NCBI GenBank assembly: GCA_020632415.1
Contig: JACKFO010000002.1
Location: 642,732 to 706,731 of the forward strand
Direction of reading: 5' to 3'
Source of the DNA: Candidatus Nomurabacteria bacterium
GTDB taxonomy: Bacteria > Patescibacteriota > Patescibacteriia > UBA1558 > GWA2-36-10
DNA length: 64,000 nucleotides
Shown here: positions 14,396 through 62,655 of the stretch, in pieces
Layout of the letters: the number at the start of each line of letters is the position of its first letter
Numbering within the stretch: the first letter of the stretch is position 1
The notes under the pieces: generated by a model
Told to the model about the DNA's origin: nothing
The model's input: the letters and a program-made list of their open reading frames with translations, nothing else
The model's database searches: none
Made by a program: the position numbers and the translations under genes

Positions 14396-14499
14396 ACCCT
14401 TTTGATAGCTGGGAATTTAGCTTAAATTCTCAATAAAAATCAATAAAAACAAGAGATAATTAAGGGGCTCTGATTTTCATCAAAGCCCGAGTATTTTTT

Positions 14500-14643
14500 T
14501 CAAGTGACTAATCGCCCAATTGAACGCCAAAGCCAAAATGGCAATCGCGATCATGATGGTAGCGAATGGCGGTTGCCACGTCACCAGAATGCCAACGAAA
14601 ACCCAAGCAAGCAATTTGTAATGTCGCCGATTCAACTTAAACA
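14500..14643 (-). CDS. 48-aa hydrophobic peptide in GC-rich island (hypothetical)
   Basis: Minus-strand ORF MFKLNRRHYKLLAWVFVGILVTWQPPFATIMIAIAILALAFNWAISHL with aaggag RBS; not in the ORF track because it is under 60 aa; coordinates hand-counted. Confidence 0.25.
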
Positions 14644-14699
14644 TCTTCTGCTCCTTGTTCTAGACAATGAACTAACTCTTTTATTAAAAGACAAATCTT

Positions 14700-14749
14700 A
14701 TCATCTAATAAAAGAGTCCGAAGTGTCCCTGCTGAGCAGAAACACTTCG
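14700..14749 (-). terminator. hairpin terminator after the GC-rich two-gene module
   Basis: ccgaagtgt...acacttcgg 9-bp stem with nested tgct/agca; T-rich on the minus strand after the stem. Confidence 0.35.
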
Positions 14750-14772
14750 GCACATTGAAGTTGGAGCGCTAG

Positions 14773-14967
14773 TCACCGAAGTCCTCGACAGACCTCGTAG
14801 AACTCACTGAAGCCCTCCTCCAGCAGTTCACTGAAGCTCGGTCCATCGGAACTTCCTCTTCCGACTCGCCTCATGAGTGGATCGCCTCCATTGGCCGTGA
14901 CGTTCTTCCGTGGAGAAGCGGGTGGTTGTGGGTGTTGTGAGTACATCTGTTTCGTGTCCTTGGCCAT
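14773..14967 (-). CDS. 64-aa hypothetical protein (GC-rich island)
   Basis: Internal start MAKDTKQMYSQHP... preceded by ggaggaagg RBS; begins 26 nt after the stop of the 183-aa gene. Confidence 0.35.
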   Translation of the reverse strand: MAKDTKQMYSQHPQPPASPRKNVTANGGDPLMRRVGRGSSDGPSFSELLEEGFSEFYEVCRGLR

Positions 14968-14992
14968 CGTTCCTTCCTCCATGCTGCAAACT

Positions 14993-15544
14993 TCAATCAA
15001 GTAAGCTCGTTTGGGCGACTTGTGCTGACATGTCAACGTTCGCCTTGCGCAAGATGCGTAAAGCAAAACCAGAAACCAACTCCGCACGAGAAGCACCGGT
15101 CAAAGCACAATCAAGCGCTCGACCAATGTCCTCCTTGCTGATCTTTCGATCTAACTCTGGAAACTCTTCGAGGATCCTTCTGATCACTTCGATTAACCTT
15201 TCAGCTTCTTTCTCTGCTTTGCGATAAGCGACTTGTTTCGGTTCATCGGGAATTCCCGCTAAGAACACCCGAACTTCCGCATCGCCAGCTTTGGACAAGT
15301 CAACGTCCAAAGATTGCCCGGCGACTCGGCCTCTCGGAAACTCGATGCCAGCTAGACTTCGCGCTGACGTCAAATCTCCTACGTTACCAAACGCTTGAAC
15401 AAATCCCTCCACTTGCATCATGCGATTCAATCGCGGAAGCAAGTATTCGCTCAAGCGAGTGCCTTTAAAACCAAGCCCCTTGCCTTCGCGAATCAAAGCC
15501 TCAACCTCTGCACGATGAGCTTTTAACCATTCAACGCGTGTCAT
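14993..15544 (-). CDS. 183-aa hypothetical protein (GC-rich island, no recognisable domain)
   Basis: Long ORF in a region of markedly elevated GC; protein composition is plausible (not antisense-like); no family recognised by eye. Confidence 0.5.
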   Translation of the reverse strand: MTRVEWLKAHRAEVEALIREGKGLGFKGTRLSEYLLPRLNRMMQVEGFVQAFGNVGDLTSARSLAGIEFPRGRVAGQSLDVDLSKAGDAEVRVFLAGIPDEPKQVAYRKAEKEAERLIEVIRRILEEFPELDRKISKEDIGRALDCALTGASRAELVSGFALRILRKANVDMSAQVAQTSLLD

Positions 15545-15683
15545 GTTGCTTGCTCCAAGTTATTACATTCAAGTTTGCAACTTGAATATGTTAATGTTCA
15601 GCTCTTTCCTTAAAATAATTTCCAAAAAACTATTCTAAGGAAAAAGGAGCTTAAGTTAATAAGCTCTTTTTTCTATTTTAATT

Positions 15684-16172: not shown

Positions 16173-16239
16173 AAAATTTGCTTATTTTTCAAATTGATGT
16201 ACAATAATAGCATATAATTAAATTTTTGTCAATACTAAG

Positions 16240-23506: not shown

Positions 23507-23998
23507 TTATTGAGCTATTTTTTGTCTGATCATTTGGCCAAAACCTCTGCCTTGTTTGAAACCCTCAAAATCAGCTGGCTGATCAGGTCTTTGACCCATT
23601 TCATCCATTCGTTGTAAACGTAAGTCAGCTTGTTCTTGGGTGATTTCTCCAAGCGCTACAGAATCAGCTAATTTTTCTTTAATCTGAGCTTGCATTGCTT
23701 CGTGCATTTGCTCTTGAGTAATGCCTTGAGCCTCAGCGATCTGATCTAATCTTTGACCAGAATCTAAAGCAGCCTGCAATTCTTCGGTACTCATGCCCAA
23801 AATCTGAGCATGATCAGCTAACCATTCGGTATTGCCGCCGTGAAAGCCAAAACCCTTTCCTTCATGCATCCTCTGACAAACAGTGGGATCAAGCTGTTGA
23901 TCAGAAGAGCTAGACGTGGTTTGAGCGTGAACCAATCCGCCAGTGATTGCACTGGCCATGATTGCGCCTAATGCTAAATAACCTAATTCTTTTTTCAT
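23507..23998 (-). CDS. secreted hypothetical protein with ITQEQ (LTXXQ-like) repeats, possibly Spy/CpxP-like
   Basis: Signal peptide; GITQEQMHEAMQAQ and EITQEQADLRLQR repeats. Confidence 0.35.
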   Translation of the reverse strand: MKKELGYLALGAIMASAITGGLVHAQTTSSSSDQQLDPTVCQRMHEGKGFGFHGGNTEWLADHAQILGMSTEELQAALDSGQRLDQIAEAQGITQEQMHEAMQAQIKEKLADSVALGEITQEQADLRLQRMDEMGQRPDQPADFEGFKQGRGFGQMIRQKIAQ

Positions 23999-24078
23999 AT
24001 TTTTATTTATTTAATTATTAGACTTTTAAATAAGCTTATTTTTCTTTGTCTAATAATTAATACAAGATAAAAAGTTTT

Positions 24079-26382: not shown

Positions 26383-27861
<1,479 letters not shown>

Positions 27862-28177
27862 AAATAAAGTTTGCACATCTTGCTAAAAGATGTGTTTGGC
27901 TCGAGTTGTTACTCGAAATATGATTGACTTGTCCAAACTTTTAGTTGGACAATAAAATTTAAAAATTGACTTATGGTTTAACTAAAAACGGTTCACTTTT
28001 TAGTTGTCAAATATTTATTTGTCAAAAAACATTGTTTTTCTTGCTTATAGATAGCTTCTAAAGTTCAAGAAAAAACAGCAATGTCCAAAGACCTTAGACA
28101 CTTCTGTTTTTTCTCGGGTGCAACTCCCTTAATTTCTTTGTAAATCAGCTACGACTTTATTTTTTTAATGCTCCCGT

Positions 28178-32949: not shown

Positions 32950-33040
32950 AGTGCAATTAAAAATAATCGCCAAAAGCAAATCCGCCTCTGGCGGAAAAAC
33001 TATTGATATTTTATCACATTTTCTTTTCTTCAACCAGTTT

Positions 33041-33086
33041 TAAAACAAAAAGAAAAATCGCTCAGTTCACAAAGGACACTGAGCGA
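33041..33086 (-). terminator. intrinsic terminator on the minus strand, immediately upstream of smc
   Basis: atcgctcagt/actgagcgat 10-bp stem; on the minus strand it is followed by tttttctttttgtttt. Confidence 0.45.
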
Positions 33087-33640
33087 TCGCAGCAGTTGTG
33101 CCGATCCACGGGGACCGGTCCGCCAAAACACCCAGTCGGGTGGTAGTGGCCAAAGGTAGCGGAAGGCGGCGCGGGGTTGAACGAATTCAGACTCGTCAAA
33201 ACGCGAACGAGAAGCCTCGCACCTCACCTTTGCAGTCGCGTCAACAGCCCGCAAGGCCTCTCGTGTTTACCACGAAATAGGAGGTTCCAATGGCATCGAA
33301 CGGTTGTGCGCCACCTTCCGCATTTTCTTTTCTTGCTAAAGAGCCAAGAAGACTTATTTAGTATAAGATCAGAAAAGAAAATTGTCAAATATATATTTAA
33401 ACAAAAGAAAAACTGCCCAGTTCTCAAGGAACTCTGGGCAGCTTGGGGGGCCTCTTTCGAGGCGTCGTCGCAGCAGCAGAAAGCCGGGGCACAGGGAGCG
33501 TCACACACACAGGTCGGTAGGAAGTTATCTGGAAAAGTCCAGGCGGACTTTTGGCTGCAAAATAAGGAAGGAGCACAAAATCATTATCAAAATACACGAA
33601 AACAATTATTTTGTCAAGACCAACAAAAAACTCATCTGTC
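33087..33640 (-). ncRNA. GC-rich, ORF-poor region: candidate structured RNA gene(s) of unknown class
   Basis: G+C far above flanks; only overlapping, biased-composition ORFs on both strands; bounded by three minus-strand intrinsic terminators (33041-86, 33398-440, 33641-79). Confidence 0.25.
33398..33440 (-). terminator. intrinsic terminator on the minus strand inside the GC-rich island
   Basis: ctgcccag/ctgggcag 8-bp stem followed on the minus strand by tttttcttttgttt. Confidence 0.4.
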
Positions 33641-33679
33641 CAAATAAAAAACATTCCGCCAAAGTCAGACTTTGGCGGA
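33641..33679 (-). terminator. intrinsic terminator on the minus strand downstream of rnc
   Basis: ttccgccaaag/ctttggcggaa 11-bp stem followed on the minus strand by tgttttttattt. Confidence 0.45.
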
Positions 33680-33774
33680 ACGGAGCGCTCTCAAAAACCA
33701 TTACGGTAAGTAGATCCGGATCTGGCCTCTGGGCAGCTACACAATCATTTGAGTAAAAGAGCTATTATCTAAGT

Positions 33775-34476
33775 TTATTTATCTTCCCAGCCTTTTTTCA
33801 ACAAGCCTTTAGCAGCAGCATCAGTTTGCGCTTCCTGTTTACTAAAACCTTCGCCTTCAGCTACTAATTCTTTTTCTAAATAAACTCCGACAATAAATCT
33901 CTTATTATGATCTGGTCCTGATTCAGCAATCACTCGATAATTTGGTGTGATTCCGACTAACTCTTGAGCCTTTTCTTGAAAATTAGTTTTTGGATCAATA
34001 TATGATTTCTCTTCGATGATTTTTTCTAAATTAACAATCAAATTTTCTCTGATAAACTTTTCTGCTGTTTTATATCCTTGATCTAAATAGATTGCTCCCA
34101 CTACCGCTTCAAAAGTGTTGGCCAAAATATAGCTACGAGCTTTTTTATTTTTATCGCGAGCCTCTCCCCGACTCATATGAAGCCAACGATATAAGTCTAA
34201 ATTTTCTGAAGCGGCGGCAAGTTGATCACGATTTACTAAACTCGAGCGCCAATTAGTCAAAACACCCTCTGCTTCTTGAAAATTTTTATACAAATAATCA
34301 GTAACAACTAATTCTAGCACTGCGTCACCTAAAAATTCTAAACGCTCATTATGATCTAGGGCAAAGTTTTTATGTTCATTTAAATAAGATCTATGCACCA
34401 AAGCAGATTTTAAAAAGTCACGGTTCTTAAAAGTGACTTTTAGTTTCTCTTCCAAATCTTTCAAATTCTTCTCCAT
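33775..34476 (-). CDS. rnc: ribonuclease III
   Basis: ERLEFLGDAVLELVV RNase III signature; C-terminal dsRBD. Confidence 0.85.
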   Translation of the reverse strand: MEKNLKDLEEKLKVTFKNRDFLKSALVHRSYLNEHKNFALDHNERLEFLGDAVLELVVTDYLYKNFQEAEGVLTNWRSSLVNRDQLAAASENLDLYRWLHMSRGEARDKNKKARSYILANTFEAVVGAIYLDQGYKTAEKFIRENLIVNLEKIIEEKSYIDPKTNFQEKAQELVGITPNYRVIAESGPDHNKRFIVGVYLEKELVAEGEGFSKQEAQTDAAAKGLLKKGWEDK

Positions 34477-39125: not shown

Positions 39126-39154
39126 TTGACAAAATTTATAATTTATCCTATTAT
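39126..39154 (+). promoter_or_regulatory. sigma70-like promoter (TTGACA-17-TATTAT) upstream of the GC-rich membrane gene
   Basis: ttgaca aaatttataatttatcc tattat. Confidence 0.35.
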
Positions 39155-39193
39155 AAATTAATTTTGCACATCTTCAAACTCAAGGAGAATCCG

Positions 39194-39769
39194 GTGGAAA
39201 ACCTCTTCTTTTTCCTAGATTGGAAGCTCTTGTTTGCTTCCTTCATCCTGAACACACTGGCCATCTGCGCCATGTTGATCGTCCAGTGGTGCGAAAGCAC
39301 TTCAGGAGTGATCAGACCAAGACACCACATAATCCCCAGCACCAAGCAGAAGTTCCTCTACTGGCAGGACTTCTACTGCCAAAAGTGGGGTAACGTCTGG
39401 GGCATGCCTCTGATGCTCTACCCTACGATGTTCCTTTACAAGTACAACTGCCTAGATTCCTGGTCGCTCTTGTTCGCGTTGCTGGCAATTCTTGCCACCA
39501 GAGCATTCTTCAAAGAATGCACAAAGAAGACACATAAGCCGGATTGGGGCTACCCCAAGCCAGGAGAACACAGCTTCAGCGGAACACTCCACTTGACCTA
39601 CTTTGGGTTTTATATCTTTGTCGTGATCACCTCGATCTATTCCATGATCAGAGGCTACCTGGTCCGAGAAGAAATCTTCGTTTTCTTCCTCGGTGCGACG
39701 ATCTACATCGCAACCTGGGTCAAAGACGTCAGGTCTGGTAACTTCGCCAAACTGGAGAAAATCCATTGA
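39194..39769 (+). CDS. 191-aa polytopic membrane protein in GC-rich island (hypothetical, GTG start)
   Basis: aaggag RBS 6 nt before the GTG at 39194 (in frame with the track ORF 39020..39769); 4-5 TM; Cys/Trp/His rich; no family recognised. Confidence 0.45.
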   Translation: MENLFFFLDWKLLFASFILNTLAICAMLIVQWCESTSGVIRPRHHIIPSTKQKFLYWQDFYCQKWGNVWGMPLMLYPTMFLYKYNCLDSWSLLFALLAILATRAFFKECTKKTHKPDWGYPKPGEHSFSGTLHLTYFGFYIFVVITSIYSMIRGYLVREEIFVFFLGATIYIATWVKDVRSGNFAKLEKIH

Positions 39770-39843
39770 AAACCCTCCGTTTCCTGAATCAGCTCTGGGG
39801 CTGGTTCAGTCATGGCGAGCTTCACTGGTAAGCTCAGCTCCTC

Positions 39844-39880
39844 CCTCTGCGTACGCGAGCACGCAGAGGGATTTTTTTTA
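39844..39880 (+). terminator. GC-rich intrinsic terminator
   Basis: ccctctgcgt/acgcagaggg 10-bp stem followed by atttttttta. Confidence 0.5.
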
Positions 39881-42664
39881 TTTACTAAACTTTTTCTTTA
39901 ACGAAAAAATAATTAACAAAATTAAACTGCCGCAAATTATAAACAATAAATTCTTTTTTATTTTTTCACTCCGCAGATCATTTTCTACCTGATAAACTTC
40001 TTCGCTAATTTCTACTTGTTTGTTTGGCTCTTTGTTTATTGCTGCTTCTACTTTTTGAGCAAACTGCAAATCATTTTTATTCAAAGGCAATAATTTAAAT
40101 CCACTACTGGTTTCAGACAAAATTCCAGCAACAATCATTTCTTGACCTTTGCTGATTTCTAAATCACTTAAATCAAAATTTGCATAAACGCGCACTTGCC
40201 AATCCTCTTCTTCTTCGCTAGCCAAATAAATATTCTTGCCACTTTTTTTGACAATAATTCCCTTGAGATGCAAAAAGTCTCCTAATAAATCTTCACTCAA
40301 ATCATCGGTAGAAATTAATTCTGGCGCTGCCAAATCCAAATGAAACTCAGTTTTTAAAAGATCTTCTTTGCTTTTTATTTTTACTCGTGGCAAAGGATCC
40401 AGTTTTGAAATTTCACCAGACACTTCCACAAGATCTCCCGCTTTTATTTCGGGCCAATCTTTTTTGCTAAAATAAATCTCCACTGGTTGATCATAATAAA
40501 TTTCCTCTTGGTCCCAATCTACTAAATATAAACTTGCGCTTTTTGGATTAGCATCATTGATTGCTAGGCCCTGCAAAATAACATTGGCTTTTATTTTTTG
40601 ATCATAAATAGCTGGCGGATTTAAAAGGCTAAAACCAGCAACGTCTTGTTTAGCTTGATTTACAGATCCTGGACTAGCTTGCTTATTGACAAACCATTCT
40701 AAATTCTCAAAATCCCAAGCGTACGATTGTCCTTCGGGAATTTTATTATAATTTACTTCCTGCCAAACTTCTTGCAATGGGTTTAATAAACGCACACTAT
40801 CTTCTGAATTATTTAAAGTAACGCCTGTTTCTGAACGAGAAAAAATCTTGAACTCACCCGGCAAAATAATTGTGCTGGTCGCAAATAAGTATGGCCGACT
40901 ACCACCATCTTGGTCATCCAAATACCAACCCAGCAAATCTATTGGTTCTGAAAAATTATTACAAACTTCAATCCATTCACCGTCATCAGAGCCGACTGGA
41001 TTTGGAATAAACTCAGAAATAATCAAGTCTCCAAGCTCAAAATTTATTACTTGGATGTTTTTTATTTCTAAATTATTCTCTGCCTCAAAAATATTTAACA
41101 ATAAACTAGCCTCGCCGCTCAAACCTTCGCTGTCGCTAACTTTTAACTTTACTAAATAATTTCCAGCTGCCGAGTATTGATGATTTTCTATTTTTTCATC
41201 ACCAGAAGTTTCGTCACCAAAGTCCCAAAAATATTCTAGCGTTCCTTCTTCGGGATCAGAAGAATCTTCTGCTGATAATTTAATTTTTTCACCAACTAAA
41301 AAATTTTCTGACAACAACTTAATTACTGCCTCCGGCGCAAGATTTGCTACAAAAATATTTTCCGTTCCAGGAGTCAATTCTGCGGTCCACAAAAAATTAT
41401 TCTGAAAAATATTTTCTCGGGCATAACTTTTGTTTTCTAAGGCTGTATCAATGTATGAAATTTGTTCCAACAAACTTCCTTCTGGATCATAAAGCTTGAC
41501 GGCATCACCTCCGGCATTATTCAAAGAAACTCCCGTAACACTTTTTTCTAAAACCAAATAAGTGTTAGCGCCAATGCTGAGATTGTCATCTTCAGAAATT
41601 GTAAATATTCGCGCTGAGTTATCTTGCAAAGCAAAACCACTCAAATCTATTCTTTGTTCTCCTTTGTTATAAAGCTCAATCCACTCACCATCATCAACTC
41701 CAGTTGGATTTGGTAAAAACTCGGAGACAATAATGTCTTGCCAATGATTTTGCGGCGGCGGATTTCCGCCGCCGTTATTACCGCCACCATTTTCTCCACC
41801 CCCACCATCTTCCTCCTCTTGATCTTCTGCTGTCACAGTCACCAAACAACTAGCATAAGCTTCTAATTCGCCATTGGAAACAGTCAAACTAACATTGTAA
41901 TTATTTGCTTCCACAAAAGTATGGGTCGCTTGCACTGTTGTTATCGTTGTACCGTCCAAAAAATCCCAAAGATAAGTAAGCGGTAAATTTTGCGGATCAA
42001 TCGATTGAGAAGCGTCAAATAAACCCTCTTCTCCAAGGAGCAAGCTTGTCGGACAAATAGCTACAGCAAGCGGCTGATCGCTCTCTTCTCCACTACCATC
42101 GTCGTGACTATTTTCTAAGCCTGGCGTGCCACCAATGACAAAACTTTCTTGCCAATTTTCTGGACTTGAGTCTTGATTTAAATTTATTTTTTCTAGACTT
42201 TTGCCAGATCCCGATCCACCCCAAGCCGAATCATAAGTAGCTTGAATTAAATAAGTCTCTCCGCCATCGAAACTTAAAGCCAGTTCTCCTGTTGTATTTG
42301 CCAAACTCATTACTGTATCAAAAACCGTGCCAGAAAATTCTGGATAGTCTTGCAAAAATTGCTCAGCATCTGCCGCGATTATAAAATATTCTCCTGGCAC
42401 AATTAAATTATCTTCACCTTGCGCTAAATTTAAAGTATGATTTGTGCCGTCAAAAAAACGCCAAGTATCAGAACCCGCGCCCGTCAAAACTTCGATCTCC
42501 TCATTGCCGCTATTAAAAATTTCAACCCACTCATGTCCAGCGTCACCACCAGATAAATCATACATGATTTCGGAAATCAACAAATCAGCTTCTGTTGCCT
42601 GCGCTATTTTGGTCGCGCTAAAAACTAGCAAGCATATGATGCTTAACAAAACCGCTTTCTTCAT
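39878..42664 (-). CDS. large secreted surface protein with lamin-tail-like (LTD) domains, PKD domain(s) and C-terminal TM anchor
   Basis: Signal peptide; repeated LISEIMYD..GHEWVEIFNSG / IISEFLPNPTGVDDGEWIELYN / IISEFIPNPVGSDDGEWIEVCN motifs (LTD); PLTYLWDFLDGTT...YNVSLTV (PKD); Gly-rich linker; C-terminal hydrophobic helix plus KKKFSK. Confidence 0.6.
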   Translation of the reverse strand: MKKAVLLSIICLLVFSATKIAQATEADLLISEIMYDLSGGDAGHEWVEIFNSGNEEIEVLTGAGSDTWRFFDGTNHTLNLAQGEDNLIVPGEYFIIAADAEQFLQDYPEFSGTVFDTVMSLANTTGELALSFDGGETYLIQATYDSAWGGSGSGKSLEKINLNQDSSPENWQESFVIGGTPGLENSHDDGSGEESDQPLAVAICPTSLLLGEEGLFDASQSIDPQNLPLTYLWDFLDGTTITTVQATHTFVEANNYNVSLTVSNGELEAYASCLVTVTAEDQEEEDGGGGENGGGNNGGGNPPPQNHWQDIIVSEFLPNPTGVDDGEWIELYNKGEQRIDLSGFALQDNSARIFTISEDDNLSIGANTYLVLEKSVTGVSLNNAGGDAVKLYDPEGSLLEQISYIDTALENKSYARENIFQNNFLWTAELTPGTENIFVANLAPEAVIKLLSENFLVGEKIKLSAEDSSDPEEGTLEYFWDFGDETSGDEKIENHQYSAAGNYLVKLKVSDSEGLSGEASLLLNIFEAENNLEIKNIQVINFELGDLIISEFIPNPVGSDDGEWIEVCNNFSEPIDLLGWYLDDQDGGSRPYLFATSTIILPGEFKIFSRSETGVTLNNSEDSVRLLNPLQEVWQEVNYNKIPEGQSYAWDFENLEWFVNKQASPGSVNQAKQDVAGFSLLNPPAIYDQKIKANVILQGLAINDANPKSASLYLVDWDQEEIYYDQPVEIYFSKKDWPEIKAGDLVEVSGEISKLDPLPRVKIKSKEDLLKTEFHLDLAAPELISTDDLSEDLLGDFLHLKGIIVKKSGKNIYLASEEEEDWQVRVYANFDLSDLEISKGQEMIVAGILSETSSGFKLLPLNKNDLQFAQKVEAAINKEPNKQVEISEEVYQVENDLRSEKIKKNLLFIICGSLILLIIFSLKKKFSK

Positions 42665-44595: not shown

Positions 44596-45029
44596 AATCG
44601 CTTTTCCTTTCTGATTATTAATAATTATTTTTTAAATATCTATTGACAAAATCGACTTTTTTGTTTATTATTTTGATTGAAGGCTATTTATTTAGCCCTC
44701 AAAATCGCTTTTCTTCAAGAAAAACCAGCCGCAAGGCTGGTTTTTCTATTATTTTAAATAAAAAATCACATCACTAATAGCGCTCAACCCATAATCAGAC
44801 ATATTAAATAACATGGGTTTTTTCTTTAATAATAAATTGCTCAAAAATTTGAAAATCATCTTTTTTTCTTAAATCTTTCATAATTGACTTATTTTTATTT
44901 TGTTTTTTATTTGCGCCGTCGATATATTTAAAGACGGCTTAAATATATTTCTATCATATCAAAAATAAAAAATCTGTCAATACTAAATAATTTAGCTAAT
45001 ATTAGCTAAATTAAAAAAGCCTGGTCCTT

Positions 45030-45278
45030 TCACAAGAACAAGGCTTTGATAATCTGACTCGAAAATAGACCAAAAAAGGCGATTAAAACTGGCAATGCCA
45101 AGAAAAAATAGAACAAAAATCCCCTGAAATAGTGCAAAAACCGATCTGTCAAACTAATAATATGAACATCTCTAGGATAAATCCTACAAGCTATTGTCCA
45201 AGAAATTATCAAGACAAGGCCTAAATACAGCCCAAAGTGGCTATGGATATAAGCTAAGGCTTTCATGTTTTCCCCCAA
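45030..45278 (-). CDS. 82-aa small membrane protein (hypothetical)
   Basis: Two hydrophobic segments. Confidence 0.3.
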   Translation of the reverse strand: MGENMKALAYIHSHFGLYLGLVLIISWTIACRIYPRDVHIISLTDRFLHYFRGFLFYFFLALPVLIAFFGLFSSQIIKALFL

Positions 45279-45342
45279 AAAATTGAAGAACTGTTCTTTC
45301 TTGTATTATAGAGCCTTTGGTTTTATTAGGTCAATCTTACTA

Positions 45343-45371
45343 TTGACAAAATATATATTATGTGATATAAT
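45343..45371 (+). promoter_or_regulatory. consensus sigma70 promoter (TTGACA-17-TATAAT) upstream of the GC-rich 315-aa gene
   Basis: ttgaca aaatatatattatgtga tataat. Confidence 0.45.
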
Positions 45372-45448
45372 TGTATATTGGCCGATTCACTACGAATTAG
45401 CCAACAGCTCCTTGCAACTTATAACTTTTTGCAGAAGGGATTGAAATC

Positions 45449-46396
45449 ATGACCGCCAACCATCATCCTTCCCTCCCGACCGCCGAAGAAATCAGCCACC
45501 ACTGCGTCGCGGCAGCCTACAAGGCAGTCGGCAAGGGCAACCCCTGGCGCAATGCTGCCTGGCATGCCCTGCAGGACTACGCCACCGAGCATCACGGCTA
45601 CGACCGCGATGACCGGTGGCAGACCGCCCAGCTGCGTCGACGCTTCTATGCCACGGCCAACTGCGGTTCCCCCGAGAACATGCTCAAGACCAAGATCCGC
45701 CAGCTGAACCTCGGGGGGCTGACCATGAGCCAGGCTCTGGCAACGCTCTATCACGATCCGCTTCTCGACCTGATCGATGGTGAAGGCCACTTCTGGCTCA
45801 ACAAGCTGAGTGAGGAAGAGGGTCTGAACTGGGCCGAACCGCACACCAAGAACCAACTGAAGCAGCTCGCCCCCAAGAAAGCCTCGCCGAGACCGCTTTC
45901 GCCTCAACGACGCTTTGTGCTCCGAATCAAGGAACTGCAGGACGATCTCGACCTCAGTCGACGAGAAGCCTACAAGAAGATCCATGCCGAATTCGCAGGT
46001 GAACTCGAGCGGGATCGCGGGCTCTTCATGACGCACTGGCCTTTCGACGAAGAAGAGCTTTCGGCCCTGGTCACGATGTTCGAAGAAGACACCAACAAGA
46101 TCCCGAAGCTCCACCGCCGCGAACTCTTCGGCTTCCTGATCACCGAGCAGATCACCGATCCGGGTGATCCGCGCGAGATGCAGAAGTTTGTAGAGACCTT
46201 CCTCAAGGTCAGTCCACTGCCGCTGGACGAGCTGAAAGCCGAGATCGAGAAAGGCTACCGAATCGCTGGCTTCAATCGTCCCTATGTGAGGGCTCAAGTG
46301 GAAAAAAGCTTCCGCGATCGGCTGCTCCCAGGCGAATTCGATCACGTCTTCGACAAGATCTGGCGTGACTGCGTCACGCTCGGACTCACTGGCTAG
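45449..46396 (+). CDS. 315-aa hypothetical soluble protein in GC-rich island
   Basis: aaggga RBS; protein has normal composition while the opposite-strand ORF (45419..46345) has antisense-like Leu/Val/Gly/Arg bias; followed by a strong terminator; no family recognised. Confidence 0.55.
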   Translation: MTANHHPSLPTAEEISHHCVAAAYKAVGKGNPWRNAAWHALQDYATEHHGYDRDDRWQTAQLRRRFYATANCGSPENMLKTKIRQLNLGGLTMSQALATLYHDPLLDLIDGEGHFWLNKLSEEEGLNWAEPHTKNQLKQLAPKKASPRPLSPQRRFVLRIKELQDDLDLSRREAYKKIHAEFAGELERDRGLFMTHWPFDEEELSALVTMFEEDTNKIPKLHRRELFGFLITEQITDPGDPREMQKFVETFLKVSPLPLDELKAEIEKGYRIAGFNRPYVRAQVEKSFRDRLLPGEFDHVFDKIWRDCVTLGLTG

Positions 46397-46408
46397 CTTC
46401 CTCCTGCT

Positions 46409-46464
46409 GCCCGCTCACTGCAAGCAAACCTTGTGTTTGTCTTGCGATGAGCGGGCTTTTTTTA
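46409..46464 (+). terminator. GC-rich intrinsic terminator
   Basis: gcccgctca...tgagcgggc with inner gcaag/cttgc, then ttttttta. Confidence 0.5.
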
Positions 46465-46530
46465 TTTGACAAAATAATTTAAAAATTCTAAGCTTTTCTA
46501 AATTGCACGCCAGCAGTTTTTGGAGGAAAA

Positions 46531-46653
46531 ATGCTAGAACAAGTCAGGCTCTACATCGACCAACACTTGGGACAATTCCTGCCAGTCTTGCTGATGCTCT
46601 CTCTTCCTTTGATCGCCGTGATCAGAAACAAAATAAGGCGGAAGAAAGCTTAG
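46531..46653 (+). CDS. 40-aa hydrophobic peptide (hypothetical)
   Basis: ggagga RBS 6 nt upstream; MLEQVRLYIDQHLGQFLPVLLMLSLPLIAVIRNKIRRKKA; followed by its own terminator. Confidence 0.25.
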   Translation: MLEQVRLYIDQHLGQFLPVLLMLSLPLIAVIRNKIRRKKA

Positions 46654-46661
46654 ATCCCCAC

Positions 46662-46690
46662 GCAGCCACCTTGAGCGGCTGCTTTTTTTA
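46662..46690 (+). terminator. intrinsic terminator
   Basis: gcagcc...ggctgc stem followed by tttttttatttt. Confidence 0.4.
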
Positions 46691-47284
46691 TTTTAAATAC
46701 TTCTTTAAAAAACTAATTCGATGCAAATCAGAAACACCGTGTTTGGCGATCAGCTCTAAGTGCTCTTTTGTACCATAACCCTTGTGTTGAGAAAAATTAT
46801 ATTTAGAATATTTTTCTCCTAAATTCATCAACAAATTATCGCGATAAACTTTAGCTAAAATTGAAGCTGCGGCAATAATCGAAAATTTACTCTCACCTTT
46901 TATGTGAAATTCTATTTTTTTGTTTTTTACATAATTTTGTGCACCACCAATATGGTCGGCTAAAATTTTTCCCTCAAAATTTTCTAGCTGTAAAATCAGC
47001 TTTTCAACTGCTCTCTCTACTACTAAACAATTAGCTGGCTGAATTCCAATTTTATCTATCTCTTGACCATCTATTTCAGCGTACGCCCAGATAAAATTAT
47101 TTTTTAATAACTCAAAAAGCTCTTCTCTTTTTTTAGCTGTTAATTTTTTAGAGTCTTTCACCAGCTTTAAAACTTCATCTTCGTTTTCTAGACCACGCGA
47201 CAAACAAGCCGCAGCCACAATCGGACCAGCCACACAACCACGACCAACTTCATCAACGCCAATAAGGTAATTTTCATTTTCCAT
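46688..47284 (-). CDS. rnhB: ribonuclease HII
   Basis: IGVDEVGRGCVAGPIVAAA catalytic N-terminus. Confidence 0.85.
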   Translation of the reverse strand: MENENYLIGVDEVGRGCVAGPIVAAACLSRGLENEDEVLKLVKDSKKLTAKKREELFELLKNNFIWAYAEIDGQEIDKIGIQPANCLVVERAVEKLILQLENFEGKILADHIGGAQNYVKNKKIEFHIKGESKFSIIAAASILAKVYRDNLLMNLGEKYSKYNFSQHKGYGTKEHLELIAKHGVSDLHRISFLKKYLK

Positions 47285-47353: not shown

Positions 47354-48583
47354 TTAATTTCTAGCGCGAGAAGCTTTGTCGATTCTTTCTAGGGCGGTCA
47401 CAAAAGCGGCTGTTCGTAAATTAACTTGATACTTTTGTCCGGTTTCCCAAATTGCTTGCCAAGCCGGAATCATTCTTTCTCTAAGCTCAGCATCTACCTC
47501 TTCGGCGCTCCAATAATTATTACTTAAATTTTGCACCCATTCAAAATAAGAAACCGTCACCCCGCCGGCGTTAGCCAAAACGTCTGGCACTACGACAACT
47601 TTGTTTTTAAATAAAATATCATCGGCCTCCGGAGTAGTTGGTCCGTTGGCAAGTTCTAACAAAATCTTTGCTTTAATATTTTCAGCATTGTCTTTGGTAA
47701 TTTGATTTTCTAAAGCAGCCGGCACCAAAACGTCCACTTCCAAAGCAAACAATTCTTCGATGTTTATTTCTTTAGCTCCTTTAAAACCTTTGACGCTCTT
47801 GGTCTCTTCTTTGTGCATCATTAATTCTGGAATATCTAAACCAGCTGCGTCATAAATTGCCGAACTAGAGTCAGCCACAGCTACTATTTTATAACCAGCC
47901 TCAAATAATAAGCCAGCCATTACTGCTCCGGCATTACCAAAACCTTGAATAGCTACTTTCAAATCTTTTTCCGGCAAGCCTAGTTGTTTAACCGCTGCTT
48001 CCAAAACATAAAAACCACCTTGTGCCGTAGAAGTACCGCGTCCTTTTGAACCACCGTATTCCAAAGGCTTGCCAGTGACAACGCCCAAAGAAGGCTTACC
48101 TTCAAGTTGTGAAAATTCATCGGCCATCCAAGCCATAATTTGTGGGGTTGTATAAACATCTGGTGCTGGAATGTCTTTTTCTGGCCCAATAACCGGACGA
48201 AAAGCACGAATCCAAACACGAGACAATCTCTCTAGTTCATTTTGACTTAGTTTTTTAGGGTCCACAATCACGCCGCCTTTACCGCCGCCCATCGGGATTC
48301 CAACTACCGCGCACTTGATCGCCATCCAAAAACTCAAAGCTTTTACTTCATCCAAATCAACTTGTGGATGAAAACGAATTCCTCCTTTGTATGGTCCACG
48401 GGCACTGTTGTATTGAACACGATAAGCTTGATAAATATTTAAACTGCCATCGTCCATTCTAACTGGCAAAGAAGCTTGATTGATTTTTTCTGGGTTAGAC
48501 AAACGGGCCAAAGTTTCTGAATTTAAATCCATGATTTTAGCCGCTGTCTCTAATTGCCTTAAAGCATTGTCATAAGCATTCAT
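47354..48583 (-). CDS. gdhA: Glu/Leu/Phe/Val-family (glutamate) dehydrogenase
   Basis: 409 aa; GGGKGG substrate motif region and GFGNAG NAD(P)-binding motif. Confidence 0.85.
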   Translation of the reverse strand: MNAYDNALRQLETAAKIMDLNSETLARLSNPEKINQASLPVRMDDGSLNIYQAYRVQYNSARGPYKGGIRFHPQVDLDEVKALSFWMAIKCAVVGIPMGGGKGGVIVDPKKLSQNELERLSRVWIRAFRPVIGPEKDIPAPDVYTTPQIMAWMADEFSQLEGKPSLGVVTGKPLEYGGSKGRGTSTAQGGFYVLEAAVKQLGLPEKDLKVAIQGFGNAGAVMAGLLFEAGYKIVAVADSSSAIYDAAGLDIPELMMHKEETKSVKGFKGAKEINIEELFALEVDVLVPAALENQITKDNAENIKAKILLELANGPTTPEADDILFKNKVVVVPDVLANAGGVTVSYFEWVQNLSNNYWSAEEVDAELRERMIPAWQAIWETGQKYQVNLRTAAFVTALERIDKASRARN

Positions 48584-50286: not shown

Positions 50287-50315
50287 TTGACAAAATACTC
50301 TAAATATGCTAATAT
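50287..50315 (+). promoter_or_regulatory. sigma70-like promoter (TTGACA-17-TAATAT)
   Basis: ttgaca aaatactctaaatatgc taatat. Confidence 0.4.
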
Positions 50316-50361
50316 AATAAGAATCTGTACAAAAGCAAACAACAAAGAAGGAGGAGCAAAA

Positions 50362-50703
50362 ATGCTCGCCTACAAAAAAACTCACGTCAAATTGACACTT
50401 TTGAGCATTGTGATTGTCGCTGCCCTGATCTGGCTGGCGATCAAGAATCAGCACGTGGTTTCGTACTTCTCACCTCTCTGGAGTGAAAACCCGAACATCG
50501 CCGATTGGTTTCACAGCTTCTGGTTCTGGGTTTTCGCCATAATCCTCTACGTCTTTAGCTGGGGAATAGTTTCCTTGCCTTTTTCGAAGAATTTCGAAGG
50601 AAACACACTTGGTTTTCTGCTCATTGGAATTCTCTGGGCCATAATCTATTTTCCCCTAGCAATCAAGGCCTGGAACTGGCTAGTTCCTCACTTCGTCTGG
50701 TAA
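50362..50703 (+). CDS. 113-aa membrane protein in GC-elevated island (hypothetical)
   Basis: aaggagga RBS 7 nt upstream of the ATG at 50362 (in frame with the track ORF 50287..50703); 3 TM; Trp/Phe rich. Confidence 0.45.
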   Translation: MLAYKKTHVKLTLLSIVIVAALIWLAIKNQHVVSYFSPLWSENPNIADWFHSFWFWVFAIILYVFSWGIVSLPFSKNFEGNTLGFLLIGILWAIIYFPLAIKAWNWLVPHFVW

Positions 50704-50719
50704 GCTGCTGCTTCGCTCA

Positions 50720-50780
50720 AGCTCGTCACAACGAGCAAAGAGCCCTCGATACACCGTGTATCGAGGGCTCTATTATTTAA
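50720..50780 (+). terminator. GC-rich intrinsic terminator
   Basis: agagccctcgatacaccgtgtatcgagggctct perfect hairpin followed by attattt; second small hairpin gctcgtcacaacgagc upstream. Confidence 0.5.
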
Positions 50781-50832
50781 AAAATTTATCTAATTTTAGC
50801 CAAAAAATAATCTTTAATTCTGCGCGGAAAAG

Positions 50833-58696: not shown

Positions 58697-58700
58697 TTTA

Positions 58701-59714: not shown

Positions 59715-59730
59715 AATTAATTTTTTTAAA

Positions 59731-60456
59731 ATGATTAAAAAAGCTTTAATTTCAGCAGCGGGTCGTGGTACTAGAATGCTTGATTTTGCCAAGGACAAAC
59801 CAAAACATTTAATTGAGGTTGGCGGCAAGCCTTTTTTGTATTACTTGTTAAACAATTTAAAAAAAGCTGGATTTTTGGATATAGTCATGGTGGTTGGTTA
59901 CAAAAAAGAAATTATGGATTTATTTCTAGAAGAATACAAAGATGATTTTAATGTCACGGTGGTTAATCAATTTGAAATTTTAGGAGATAAAAAATACGGA
60001 ACAGCCTGTCCACTTGAGTGTGTCAAAGATTTGTTAAAAGGCGAGAGCTTCTTATCAGTTTACGGTGATAATTTATACGCCGTTGAAGACTTAAAAAACT
60101 TTAATCTTGATGATCAGTATCATTATGTCGCTGGCTTAAAACACGAGCAACCACAAAATTATGGCGTTTTGCATTTGGATGAGCAAGGCTTTTTGCAGGA
60201 GATAATTGAAAAGCCAGTAGAGTTTGTTGGTGATTTAATCAACACGGGTTTGTATAAATTTACAGCAGAGGTTTTTGATTATTTAGATCAAATTTCTTTA
60301 TCTCCGCGCGGCGAATATGAGCTAACTGATGTGATTAATTTATTGGCTCAACAAAAAAAAGTAAAAGCAAAAAATTTAACAGACATTTGGTTTGACTTTG
60401 GTAAACCACAAGACATTGTCAAGGTGGAAGAATACATTAAAGAAAAATATGCTTAA
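59731..60456 (+). CDS. sugar-phosphate nucleotidyltransferase (RmlA/GlmU-N-like)
   Basis: KALISAAGRGTRM signature G-x-G-T-R-M nucleotide-binding motif. Confidence 0.6.
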   Translation: MIKKALISAAGRGTRMLDFAKDKPKHLIEVGGKPFLYYLLNNLKKAGFLDIVMVVGYKKEIMDLFLEEYKDDFNVTVVNQFEILGDKKYGTACPLECVKDLLKGESFLSVYGDNLYAVEDLKNFNLDDQYHYVAGLKHEQPQNYGVLHLDEQGFLQEIIEKPVEFVGDLINTGLYKFTAEVFDYLDQISLSPRGEYELTDVINLLAQQKKVKAKNLTDIWFDFGKPQDIVKVEEYIKEKYA

Positions 60457-61744
60457 TTTTTTTAGAAAAATTACTCCTCGCTTTTTAAAACAAGCCTATC
60501 ACTGGTTCTTGGCAAGAGTTGCGGCTTTGTTTTATTTTTTTCCTAGCAACAAACTAATCGTAATCGGGGTTACCGGAACCAACGGCAAAACTACCACGGT
60601 TAATTTGATTTCTCAAATTTTAGAAGCTTTAGGTGAAAAAGTTTTTTTAAGTTCAACTGTAAATTTTAAGCTCGGCAAAAAAGAGTGGTTGAATAATAAA
60701 AAAATGACCATGCTTGGTCGTTTTGCTACGCAAAAATTATTAAGACAAGCAGTCAAAGAAAATTGCCGTTTTGCAATAATCGAAAGCTCCTCTCAGGGCA
60801 TTGACCAGTTTCGTCACCTGGGAATAAATTATGATTTAGTAGTTTTTACCAATTTGACGCCAGAGCACATTGAAGCGCATGGCGGTTTTGAAAACTACCG
60901 AGCAGCCAAAGAAAAATTATTTAAACATTTATCAAATAGTAGACGTAAAATAGTTTTTGGCAAAAAAATTAATAAAATTATTATTAGCAACGCCGATGAC
61001 TCAGAAACCGAAAGATTGAAAAAATATTCGGTTGATCAATTTGTTACTTACGGCTTTCAAAATTCTGCTGATTTTCAAGCGAAAAATTTAATCTTAGAAA
61101 GTGGTTTAGTTTCTTTTGAGCTTGGACAAGAAAAAATCAAAACCAAACTTTTAGGAAAATTTAATGCTTATAATATTTTAGCTAGCATCGTAGCAGTTAA
61201 AAATTTAGGTTTTTCTGAAACTGAGATTTTAAAAACAAGCTTTCAAGGTGTTCCTGGAAGACAAGAGTTGATTGAAAACAACAAAGGATTCCAAGTGATG
61301 GTTGATTACGCTCCAGAGCCAGAATCTCTAAAACAACTTTATCAGGCTTTAAAAAATTTAAATTATCATAAACTAATTCACGTTTTAGGTTCTTGTGGTG
61401 GCGGCAGAGATCGTGCTCGTCAGCCAATTTTAGGAGAAATGGCCGGGCAGTTTGCTGATATTGTTGTTGTGACCAACGAGGATCCTTATGATGATGATCC
61501 GCAAGAGATTATGACCAATGTGTCAGCTGGCGCAATTAAGGCTGGTAAAGAGGCAAATAAGAACCTGTACGAGGTTCTAGATCGTAAACAAGCAATCATC
61601 AAGGCCTTGTCTCTGGCCAAAAGTGGGGATTTAGTTTTAATTACCGGTAAAGGAGCGGAACAATTTATTTGTGGCCGCAATGGTCAGAAAATTTTACACG
61701 ATGATCGACAGGTGGTTAGGGAATATTTTCAGAGAATTAAATAA
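60449..61744 (+). CDS. Mur ligase family protein (MurE/MurT-like)
   Basis: VIGVTGTNGKTTT ATP-binding motif, central and C-terminal Mur ligase domains; start ATGCTTAA overlaps the upstream stop. Confidence 0.6.
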   Translation: MLNFFRKITPRFLKQAYHWFLARVAALFYFFPSNKLIVIGVTGTNGKTTTVNLISQILEALGEKVFLSSTVNFKLGKKEWLNNKKMTMLGRFATQKLLRQAVKENCRFAIIESSSQGIDQFRHLGINYDLVVFTNLTPEHIEAHGGFENYRAAKEKLFKHLSNSRRKIVFGKKINKIIISNADDSETERLKKYSVDQFVTYGFQNSADFQAKNLILESGLVSFELGQEKIKTKLLGKFNAYNILASIVAVKNLGFSETEILKTSFQGVPGRQELIENNKGFQVMVDYAPEPESLKQLYQALKNLNYHKLIHVLGSCGGGRDRARQPILGEMAGQFADIVVVTNEDPYDDDPQEIMTNVSAGAIKAGKEANKNLYEVLDRKQAIIKALSLAKSGDLVLITGKGAEQFICGRNGQKILHDDRQVVREYFQRIK

Positions 61745-61765
61745 AAAATTAATTTTAAAGCAAAA

Positions 61766-61800
61766 AGAAAGCCGGCGCGTGGAATGCGTCGGCTTTTGAC
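61766..61800. terminator. bidirectional GC-rich terminator
   Basis: aagccggcgcgtggaatgcgtcggctt flanked by A-run and tttt, between convergent genes. Confidence 0.4.
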
Positions 61801-61818
61801 GATCAAGGTCGTCACCAC

Positions 61819-62325
61819 TCATTTCTTCTGGAAGGGATTGCGGAATGGTCCGTCTCCTTCCGTGTCACCGTGAAAAAGTTTGAGGTAGTGGTGATGCAGT
61901 AGATCACCCAAGATGCAGCTGAGACCAACTGCGATCAAGAGGCGATCTAGTTGCCAATTGGTTACTTCAGCGAAGAAACCAACAACGACCATTAAAGCTC
62001 CCCAGTGAGCATGGTGAATGCCTATGCGTCGTCCCTTGTGAACGATGTACAAGCGCTCATTTTTTCCCTGCTTACCAAAGACATAGCGAAAGAGTAACAT
62101 TGTGGCCTCTTGGAAGACGATTGTTCCCAAGAGAAACCAAAGAAACTCAATGTTGGTCATGGTCTGGAAGAAGCTGATCAGTTGTTCGAACTTGAGGTTG
62201 GAAATTTCTCGAGAGTTTTCCCAGCTATTGGTCCAGAGCCAACTCATCCAGTAGAAACTGAGCAGAAGCAAAAAACTTGTAATCAGGAGAAAAAGTCCTT
62301 TGCTAGGCTTGCTTTGCGTTTGCAT
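61819..62325 (-). CDS. 168-aa membrane protein in GC-elevated island (hypothetical)
   Basis: 4 TM; His-rich loop GIHHAHWG and LLHHHYLKLFHGD; GC clearly above the flanks. Confidence 0.45.
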   Translation of the reverse strand: MQTQSKPSKGLFLLITSFLLLLSFYWMSWLWTNSWENSREISNLKFEQLISFFQTMTNIEFLWFLLGTIVFQEATMLLFRYVFGKQGKNERLYIVHKGRRIGIHHAHWGALMVVVGFFAEVTNWQLDRLLIAVGLSCILGDLLHHHYLKLFHGDTEGDGPFRNPFQKK

Positions 62326-62655
62326 GGCAATAATCCTTTTGTCTTTAGATGGAAGTTTAGTAGCAAAATGTGAAGGATCGAATGATTAATATTAACATAT
62401 ATTTAATATTTTGTCAAGCACATGGTATTAAATTTCGGGTTTTTATCAGCAAAACAGCTTTTTATTTTTAATTTTAGCTAAAAAATGTGGATAACTTGAG
62501 GGTAAATCACCTCTTCTGGGGATTAGTTTGGCTGATCTTAGGTGAAAAAGCTTGAAAATTTGACAAAGCTAGAAATAGCTATCTCATAAAATTTAGCTAA
62601 TATTAGATAAGATAATTAAAAAAGAGCGACTTTTAAACTTTTTATGAAAGTCTTC

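Follow-up and report, generated by a model that had tools for sequence, protein, structure and literature searches.

Why should a small, AT-rich Candidate Phyla Radiation (CPR; Patescibacteria) genome carry short stretches of DNA that break sharply in base composition from everything around them? The question is raised by a 64,000-nt stretch of Candidatus Nomurabacteria bacterium (contig JACKFO010000002.1, positions 642,732 to 706,731; here called the window), in which a first-pass annotation, made from the letters alone, saw six GC-rich islands and took them for insulated cargo, horizontally acquired or otherwise compositionally distinct. We find that the islands constitute a class of autonomous mono- or bicistronic units native to this Nomurabacteria-type lineage, each with a host-type strong sigma-70 promoter, GC-rich from approximately the transcription start through the 3' untranslated region (UTR), and closed by a stable intrinsic terminator. 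Their cargo consists of small, fast-evolving proteins, mostly polytopic membrane proteins and micropeptides, plus two apparently noncoding RNAs (ncRNAs), and it is largely lineage restricted. The units sit in recurrent intergenic slots, of which those of islands 3 and 5 are conserved and that of island 4 is patchily occupied. On the basis of sequence comparison, their GC-richness seems to be a maintained property of the transcription units and no decaying mark of recent transfer; as its cause we tentatively favor, over the rivals weighed below, selection on the transcript itself. The reading as recently acquired cargo explains the islands in part at most.

Stand-alone units in an AT-rich window

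The window is part of an 842-kb contig and has a GC content of 36.6% (median over 200 nt, 0.355). Sliding GC over 200 nt recovers all six islands close to where they were first placed: island 1 at 14461-15605 (mean GC, 0.48; peak, 0.57), island 2 at 32960-33855 (0.46; 0.61), island 3 at 39147-39917 (0.47; 0.535), island 4 at 45336-46707 (0.53; 0.675), island 5 at 50318-50794 (0.44; 0.485), and island 6 at 61366-62265 (0.45; 0.52). The 50 to 60% GC originally ascribed to them holds for island 4 and for local peaks, whereas islands 3, 5, and 6 average 44 to 49%. Similarly, the statement that no other region reaches this level fails for the raw GC of island 5, which is matched by host stretches at 6397-6968 (peak, 0.50), 23649-24003 (0.505), and 47891-48471 (0.48); island 5 is an outlier only in its GC at third codon positions (GC3). 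Host genes have a GC3 of 0.291 (standard deviation, 0.041; maximum, 0.422; n = 55), as against 0.47 to 0.74 in the island open reading frames (ORFs; z scores, 4.3 to 11), a distinctness far beyond drift, as had been claimed. Codon choice differs accordingly: TTA and TTG make up 74% of host leucine codons and CTC 1.6%, whereas in I3, I4, I5, and I6 (units are numbered after their islands) TTA is near zero and CTC or CTG dominates. In the same units, C/(C+T) at third positions is 0.59 to 0.78, versus 0.18 to 0.33 in host genes. Most of the shift in I3, I5, and I6 falls at synonymous sites, that in I4 reaches all codon positions, and the sense strands of the island units hold more C than G.

The six islands resolve into at least nine stand-alone transcription units, seven coding and two noncoding. 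Unit I3 (39126-39880, + strand) opens with the promoter TTGACAAAAT-N13-TATTAT (39126-39154), followed by an AAGGAG ribosome-binding site (RBS), a GTG-initiated coding sequence (CDS; 39194-39769; GC3, 0.70) for a 191-aa protein with five transmembrane (TM) segments, a GC-rich 3' UTR of about 70 nt, and a terminator at 39842-39871. Island 4 carries two plus-strand units. The first, I4a (45343-46465), has a TG-extended TTGACA-17-TATAAT promoter that matches the consensus at 12 of 12 positions (45343-45371), a 5' UTR of about 70 nt with a stem-loop, a CDS (45449-46396; GC, 0.59; GC3, 0.74; GC at first positions [GC1], 0.65) for a 315-aa all-alpha soluble protein that exactly matches the NCBI protein with locus tag H6761_03585, and a terminator with arms at 46409-46424 and 46441-46456. 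The second, I4b (46466-46690), has the promoter TTGACAAAAT-N13-TAAGCT (46466-46494, read directly) and encodes a 40-aa single-TM peptide with a basic C terminus (CDS, 46531-46653; GC3, 0.63); its terminator is a GCAGCC...GGCTGC hairpin followed by a T-run, and the end of the unit is the rnhB stop codon. Unit I5 (50287-50780, + strand) combines the promoter TTGACAAAAT-N13-TAATAT (50287-50315), a GGAGGAG RBS, a CDS (50362-50703; GC3, 0.61) for a 113-aa 3-TM protein, and a terminator at 50739-50771. Unit I6 (61766-62417, - strand), which is convergent with murE, has the promoter TTGACAAAAT-N13-TAATAT (62417-62389), a CDS (62325-61819; GC3, 0.55) for a 168-aa membrane protein, and terminator arms at 61796-61786 and 61778-61768.

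Both units of island 1 lie on the minus strand. I1a (14712-15659) is headed by a weak promoter-like site (15659-15632) and encodes a 183-aa soluble ORFan (CDS, 15544-14993; GC, 0.50; GC3, 0.47) with host-like leucine codons, followed by a second ORF of 64 aa (14967-14773; RBS, GGAGGA) and a terminator at 14750-14718. I1b (14465-14700) encodes a 54-aa hydrophobic peptide (CDS, 14644-14480; RBS, AAGGAG; GC3, 0.56), terminates at 14488-14465, and is located just upstream of the 23S rRNA promoters (14395-14367 and 14139-14112). Every ORF of the first-pass annotation (191, 113, 168, 183, 315, 40, 54, and 64 aa) is present. The 33-kb island, described there as ORF free, is without a credible ORF but holds two minus-strand promoter-terminator units, both candidate ncRNAs. 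I2A (33045-33388) has a TTGACA-17-TATACT promoter (33388-33360), a GC-rich transcript of about 300 nt whose small ORFs have no RBS, and a terminator whose arms (33087-33078 and 33066-33057) lead into a T-run; the fold z score of the unit is -3.9. I2B (33405-33617) has the promoter TTGACAAAAT-N13-TATTTT (33617-33589), a GC-rich transcript of about 170 nt, and terminator arms at 33444-33434 and 33420-33410, likewise with a T-run (fold z score, -2.3); around the terminator it is similar to I2A (repeat D11). On its right-hand side, the island is formed by the GC-rich 3' UTR of rnc (33652-33774, - strand), with a 14-bp terminator stem at 33682-33652. The z scores of I2A and I2B are those of single-sequence folds.

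The claim that every coding island has a host-style promoter stands for I3, I4a, I5, and I6, which score 10 to 12 of 12 against the consensus, and for I4b (TTGACA-17-TAAGCT), but not for I1a, whose site scores a weak 9 of 12. Scans bear out the hairpin terminators, and the promoter and terminator evidence together upholds the description of the units as insulated and self-contained. The string TTGACAAAAT occurs 8 times in place of an expected 0.85, six times at island units, once in the 16S rRNA promoter, and once at a small unit resembling a small RNA (sRNA); a looser pattern, TTGACAAAA, is also found upstream of the rpsP operon. An island-only promoter was rejected, as TTGACAAAA also heads the 16S and rpsP promoters and is thus the host's strong-promoter form rather than an island-specific signal. 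Searches for DNA repeats linked the islands by promoter and terminator look-alikes only.

GC content follows the transcript along each unit. It is 0.17 to 0.36 in the promoter (six of the seven units tabulated), 0.31 to 0.45 in the 5' UTR, 0.45 to 0.59 in the CDS, and 0.50 to 0.64 in the 3' UTR ahead of the terminator, and it is 0.17 to 0.25 in the 60 nt beyond. I1b departs from this pattern, its nominal promoter window running into the I1a terminator and reading 0.44, as do the two peptide units, in which the 3' UTR measures 0 to 3 nt.

Could such islands be artefacts, either assembly chimeras or structured ncRNAs throughout, with accidental ORFs? High-GC DNA does give long ORFs on both strands, as illustrated by a 308-aa antisense ORF opposite the 315-aa ORF of I4a; the gene caller took an antisense ORF in island 3 and none in island 5; and island 2 does look noncoding. 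However, an independent Logan assembly is 100% identical to the window over 17,299 bp spanning islands 3 to 5, and a GC-rich gene within AT-rich flanks recurs in metagenome-assembled genomes (MAGs) of other studies, so that chimeric assembly is excluded for practical purposes. With regard to the ORFs, GC3 far exceeds GC at second positions (GC2) in the proposed frames, and RBS motifs are present. The 315-aa I4 protein has one word-index match, on contig L002 (58% identity; nonsynonymous divergence [dN], 0.30; synonymous divergence [dS], 0.67; dN/dS, 0.44), with which it shares near-identical blocks such as HWPFDEEELSALVTMFEEDTNK that differ at third positions only. The unnamed family that includes I3 comprises about 140 representative clusters, and the protein's AlphaFold (AF2) model from a 64-sequence alignment has five helices, with a predicted local distance difference test score (pLDDT) of 96.5 and a predicted template-modeling score (pTM) of 0.90. 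By these comparative criteria, coding status is well supported for I3 and I4, for which the artefact and "all noncoding" readings are essentially excluded; it is weaker for the I5, I6, and I1 ORFs, for which RBS motifs, hydrophobic segments where relevant, and a GC3 in excess of GC2 argue. For the islands as a set, an artefact can hardly be credited.

Positional counterparts in related genomes

We compared contigs (designated by L numbers) fetched via the flanking genes and via relatives of I3; the MAG behind L169 is GCA_018062885.1, and that behind L162/L170 is GCA_018653315.1. I3 adjoins the same LTD/PKD surface-protein gene, in convergent orientation, in the window, L162/L170, L168, and L169, and it lies elsewhere in the genome in L164 and L166. 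The GC3 of the I3 orthologs, relative to the local background, is 0.70 versus 0.29 in the window (host mean), 0.66 versus 0.30 in L169, 0.68 versus 0.27 in L168, 0.77 versus 0.27 in L166, 0.38 versus 0.24 in L162, and 0.34 versus 0.24 in L164; the summary range over counterparts is 0.38 to 0.77 versus 0.22 to 0.39. Sequence identities of I3 (37 to 59%) and of the LTD protein (56 to 69%) run in parallel, with L169-L168 the closest pair for both. Between these genomes, dS is 1.3 to 2.2 for LTD, 1.1 to 1.4 for TrxB, and at least 1.2 or undefined for I3, and dN is 0.32 to 0.75 for I3 as against 0.10 to 0.21 for TrxB. In L172, a nonhomologous membrane ORF with a GC3 of 0.77 stands beside LTD in the place of I3.

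Island 4 amounts to a precise indel: the window has 1,353 bp that are missing from L003, L169, and L170, where the -35 box of the next small membrane gene comes directly after the rnhB stop codon, and the junction has no target duplication. L172, on the other hand, has a 296-aa ortholog of I4 at the identical junction (38% identity; tblastn E value, 1e-62; GC3, 0.67), with an alignable promoter and the same back-to-back arrangement (ctATTGACAAAAATATA...); its dS to the window and to L002 is 1.27 to 1.79, and I4b is not present there. In the slot of I5, the CNNM-CsoR spacer, L169 and L170 each carry a 3-TM ORF of about 113 to 122 aa that has the orientation of I5. Their promoters can be aligned with that of the window, the proteins are just about 20% identical, and the GC3 values are 0.61 (window), 0.60 (L169), and 0.41 (L170).

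The positional counterparts are GC3-rich in every genome although dS is saturated between most of these genomes, a state in which a passive signature of transfer should have decayed, and this argues that the composition is maintained. Moreover, the elevation of I3 and of the I5 slot is similar within each of the three genomes whose two slots could both be read (0.70 and 0.61 in the window, 0.66 and 0.60 in L169, and 0.38 and 0.41 in L162/L170), which independent transfers would not predict. Recent acquisition therefore lacks support as a general explanation, since the syntenic I3 orthologs, the same-site I4 of L172, and the look-alikes in the I5 slot are all GC3-elevated at a dS of 1.1 to 2.2 or undefined. 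Of the view that the islands are horizontally acquired cargo, what stands is the indel of island 4.

A subtler form of that view is that the units, or their coding cores, are moron-like cassettes repeatedly replaced from a GC-richer pool (other CPR bacteria, hosts, or unsampled mobile elements), their GC content reflecting origin plus short residence. We regard this as the main rival, though a doubtful one, and the same reservation applies to its corollary that the units enter intergenic slots that tolerate them, either behind a strong promoter or along with one. The clean indel of island 4, missing in L003, L169, and L170, is what replacement would leave, yet the junction and the promoter of I4 are common to the window and L172. 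The promoter of the I5 slot aligns between the window and L169 around unalignable coding parts, and L172 has its nonhomologous ORF beside LTD, but I3 itself is syntenic and its divergence tracks that of the neighboring LTD gene. Additional GC-elevated units of 127 and 128 aa occur at nearby sites in L162/L170 and are missing from the window, with L172 too having extra such genes. GC levels vary between islands, as varied ages or donors would give; within one genome, however, the slot genes share a GC3 level. I4 is GC-shifted at every codon position, but neither I4 nor I1 has a homolog from a GC-rich organism among 5.8 billion proteins, and all I3 and I4 relatives with readable DNA lie in AT-rich, CPR-type contexts. 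The architecture fits the definition of a phage "moron," with its own promoter and terminator and deviant GC (PMC3594210), and Patescibacteria have been reported to undergo horizontal gene transfer (HGT) and to carry genomic islands commonly (PMC12455944). Against this, the islands show no integrase or transposase ORFs, flanking repeats, tRNA-adjacent integration, or target duplication, and their proteins gave no match in PHROGs, PADLOC, or, for the four scanned, the viral contigs of IMG/VR; neither donor-lineage homologs nor mobility genes nor phage or plasmid signals back the acquisition claim.

As a separate observation, L003 (CAZXZY010000029.1) is deposited as "uncultured Gammaproteobacteria bacterium" but has the syntenic order trxB-gdh-rnhB-m82-ssb-DUF218-LTD and an RNase HII 75 to 76% identical; it is probably misbinned.

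What may hold the composition

Several lines of evidence lead us to favor selection on the transcript. The shift covers UTRs and noncoding units, begins and ends with the transcript, and is missing in ribosomal and chaperone genes, and the RNAs are thermodynamically far stabler than those of the host: island transcripts have fold energies of -0.28 to -0.36 kcal/mol per nt, as against -0.17 to -0.25 for host genes, and three of the five island mRNAs fold better than shuffled sequences (z ≤ -3.7). GC-rich UTRs also argue away from pure codon or translational selection. Indeed, translational selection for high expression was rejected as the sole cause, given these UTRs and the low, ordinary GC3 of ribosomal protein S16, HSP20, and a pilin-like gene. 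In the scenario that we envisage, a GC-rich message with C-ending codons in a cell of AT-rich RNA would be strongly folded and offer few AU-rich sites. Capped by its terminator hairpin (and, in I4, also by the 5' stem-loop), such an RNA might be long-lived, and the lack of internal AT-rich promoters, terminators, or RNase signals might ensure robust expression of short stand-alone genes. The patchy distribution would then result from gain and loss of units by recombination.

Avoidance of endoribonuclease motifs was rejected as a candidate, as no k-mer is depleted beyond composition save for a weak CTGT/ACAG signal. In the I3, I4a, I4b, I5, and I6 transcripts (3,074 nt), these reverse-complementary 4-mers occur once (8.3 expected) and three times (10.5 expected), respectively, a small sample in which significance is not established.

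A force acting on DNA rather than RNA is also conceivable. GC-biased gene conversion could operate at recombination hot spots if the slots were often exchanged among strains, for example, to diversify surface or membrane proteins in naturally competent CPR cells; heteroduplex repair with a bias toward GC would then raise GC3 and hold it high. Such exchange would account for highly divergent, allelic-looking proteins between conserved flanks and promoters, for the patchiness of island 4, and for a mainly synonymous shift in I3, I5, and I6 that reaches the UTRs. Recombining bacterial genes have been reported to have a higher GC3, but the reported effects are weak (R2 of about 0.03 to 0.09 in Streptococcus pyogenes; PMC4450053), whereas GC3 is here up by 0.3 to 0.45, and the GC-rich stretches are bounded by transcription starts and terminators and not by recombination tracts of arbitrary extent. 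As the Logan contig and the window are identical, a strain-level comparison of single-nucleotide polymorphisms gave no variants. We consider gene conversion an unlikely cause.

Orientation raises another possibility, namely, that strongly transcribed genes facing the replication fork head-on are selected to be GC-rich, with a C-rich, G-poor sense strand, as protection against R-loops and DNA melting in an AT-rich chromosome that otherwise melts easily. The cumulative GC skew has its minimum and turn at about 51.5 to 57 kb, beside rnpA-yidD-yidC and dnaA-dnaN (the dnaA/dnaN region being at 55 to 58 kb), which places the replication origin inside the window, and I3, I4a, I4b, I5, and I6 would consequently be transcribed head-on to replication from this inferred origin (about 52 to 57 kb). 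The same five are antiparallel to their neighbor genes, as are the readable counterparts of I3, I4, and the I5 slot in relatives, and their sense strands show the expected excess of C over G. However, lagging-strand skew alone would also give that excess, I1 and I2 are codirectional with replication yet GC-rich, and a 7-kb head-on block at 16.2-23.4 kb has an ordinary GC3. Protection from replication-transcription conflict is accordingly an improbable explanation.

The transcript-level account that we favor faces difficulties of its own. Its selective agent is something that we wholly infer, and a general fitness benefit of GC-rich bacterial transcripts is contested, with PMC6112741 citing and questioning Raghavan et al. 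2012. The fold z scores of I4a (-1.8) and I5 (-1.6) are no better than those of host genes, and clustered GC-rich stretches can by themselves inflate such scores. The shift of I4 at first (GC1, 0.65) and second positions is what would be expected of long residence in a GC-rich genome. The 183-aa ORF of I1, which lacks homologs, is weakly promoted, and differs in its codon signature, may be of different history. L162/L170 and L164 show a weak elevation and L171 almost none, so any selection would have to be lineage dependent, and the absence of island 4 from three relatives fits gain by transfer as well as loss. Finally, comparators cover I3, I4, and I5 only.

Taken to its full extent, selection on RNA would mean that a CPR lineage keeps a dedicated class of stand-alone, strongly promoted genes, mostly for small membrane proteins and small RNAs, in a GC-rich "dialect," held far off the genomic equilibrium; we offer this as a speculative proposal. 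Selection might favor an extremely stable RNA, one insulated from AT-directed RNases or termination, the avoidance of R-loops by head-on genes, or the gating of translation by rare codons.

Cargo, surroundings, and resemblance to known systems

The first-pass annotation could place none of the island proteins in a family, and profile searches agree: none has a match above the cutoffs of Pfam, NCBIfam, PADLOC, or PHROGs, a weak PGPGW-like match of the 54-aa I1b peptide falling below the Pfam cutoff. Searches with Rfam 15 gave no match in any island, at the gathering threshold or at E ≤ 10. The 183-aa I1 protein matches only itself among the 5.8 billion proteins. Sequence profiles of the PDB retrieved nothing, the widespread 5-TM family of I3 matches no solved structure, and the AlphaFold model of I4 is all-alpha, poor (pLDDT, 64), and matches nothing. 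All-versus-all BLASTP found no mutual similarity among the island proteins, by which the shared function once suggested for the membrane proteins is neither supported nor excluded. By hydropathy, the 40- and 54-aa ORFs have the features of type I toxin peptides (a length below 60 aa, a single TM helix, and a charged tail); in crude scans, no promoter of an antisense RNA antitoxin was conspicuous, and PADLOC gave no match.

Gene prediction fares poorly in these units. A gene caller took an antisense ORF of 104 aa in island 3 (665-979 of contig L001, corresponding to 39452-39766 of the window) and called nothing in island 5 (a gap at 11411-12046 of L001, corresponding to 50.2-50.8 kb of the window), and the NCBI annotation of the 183-aa I1 ORF is a 141-aa product. 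GC-rich units in AT-rich genomes thus appear to be systematically misannotated.

In a distant metagenomic relative, at an unrelated locus (L090, 13337-15961), a GC-rich island is a diversity-generating retroelement, composed of a 202-aa target gene whose C-terminal region is variable, a template repeat, an Avd-like ORF of 103 aa, and a reverse transcriptase of 339 aa. Local GC is raised there by another cause; near the islands of the window, no reverse transcriptase-like ORFs or repeat pairs occur. Other GC islands in the fetched loci are mostly tRNAs or short.

Besides the islands, the window carries ordinary housekeeping genes, the island neighbors being rnhB, ssb, trxB, gdh, smc, rnc, murE, and rRNA genes. 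A small plus-strand unit at 44643-44750 has a promoter of the TTGACAAAAT type, a transcript some 75 nt long, and a terminator stem of 13 bp (fold z score, -7.1); no Rfam family matches it. The unit is kept in L169, L162, and L003, and its terminator shows compensatory changes among them; it is convergent with a 53- to 55-aa ORF upstream of ssb and is a candidate small regulatory or antisense RNA. The minus-strand gene at 45030-45278 encodes an 82-aa two-TM protein, has its own promoter and the top GC3 among host genes (0.42), and has very divergent counterparts in L003, L169, L170, and L172 (about 12 to 30% identity); it looks like a milder member of the island class. A perfect 20-nt palindrome, TTTAGCTAATATTAGCTAAA (core, GCTAATATTAGC), at 44991-45010 has degenerate copies at 50785-50804 and 62592-62611, and it recurs in L162 (about 4848 and 10285) and L169 (about 14367), its syntenic places being conserved in related genomes. 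It lies just upstream of TTGACAG-type promoters, the ssb operon promoter among them. Of its three copies in the window, two are no more than 200 nt from islands 5 and 6, and it is probably the operator of a regulator.

These results bear on how composition is read. Atypical GC and codon usage are routinely taken as evidence of HGT, and the islands argue that in small AT-rich CPR genomes they can be a maintained feature of transcription units. If so, the composition of a gene class would be one of its functional and heritable properties and not a record of its ancestry, GC and codon anomalies in such genomes would mislead HGT detectors, and composition-based HGT calls in Patescibacteria would call for caution. 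A strong selective or conversion force on RNA or DNA composition would be exposed, and a set of small, probably highly expressed membrane proteins, including the 5-TM family of I3, would be flagged as candidates in the cell-surface biology of episymbiotic bacteria, in units that gene callers mishandle. In the open-access literature, we found no paper on persistent GC-rich stand-alone genes in CPR genomes; what appears new here is a gene-class-specific compositional dialect maintained in a reduced AT-rich genome, along with the uncharacterized 5-TM family.

Among known systems, the closest in architecture are the morons of phages, a concept of Hendrix and Juhala (reviewed in PMC3594210), which likewise have their own sigma-70 promoter and intrinsic terminator (the promoter being weak at I1a), deviate in composition, often carry a small membrane or surface accessory protein, and appear as extra DNA between genes adjacent in relatives, as does island 4 relative to L003, L169, and L170. 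Unlike morons, the islands sit in a chromosome among housekeeping genes with no phage or prophage and no PHROGs or viral-contig matches, I3 is present in every syntenic relative but L172, and I4 itself is found at the same junction in L172. I3 and the I5 slot are positionally conserved and GC-rich at saturated dS, which a moron or HGT model does not predict. With horizontally acquired genomic islands and ORFan islets, they share a sharp composition break, atypical codon usage, ORFan content, and the patchiness of island 4, but they measure just 0.4 to 1.4 kb and lack flanking repeats, mobility genes, and integration linked to a tRNA. The islands are GC-rich in an AT-rich genome, an unusual direction, as acquired genes are typically AT-richer, and in positional orthologs the deviation persists and does not ameliorate.

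GC-rich ncRNA genes were reportedly found in AT-rich hyperthermophiles by Klein, Misulovin and Eddy in 2002, and in the window, too, promoter- and terminator-bounded GC islands mark stable structured transcripts, namely, rRNA and tRNA, a pattern into which island 2 fits. The rRNA genes are unlinked here, with 23S and 5S at 10.6-14.0 kb and 16S at 26.4-27.9 kb, and the window has 11 tRNAs; the GC content of the rRNAs is only about 48 to 50%, which would fit a mesophile. The 16S gene (26383-27867), followed by four tRNAs, lies about 12 kb away from the 23S-5S pair, and the 23S gene (10873-13994) spans 3,122 nt as against a 2,925-nt model, so that it probably contains at least one insertion. In contrast to those ncRNA genes, most islands are protein coding with clear codon periodicity and have no match to an Rfam family. 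Lastly, in Streptomyces, bldA and the TTA codon provide rare-codon gating of a small accessory gene set, and by analogy the island genes are written in codons rare in their genome, CTC, at 1.6% of host leucine codons, being the main leucine codon in I3 to I6. The resemblance would be one of analogy only, since in the islands the whole transcript is shifted, UTRs and noncoding units included, and not a single codon.

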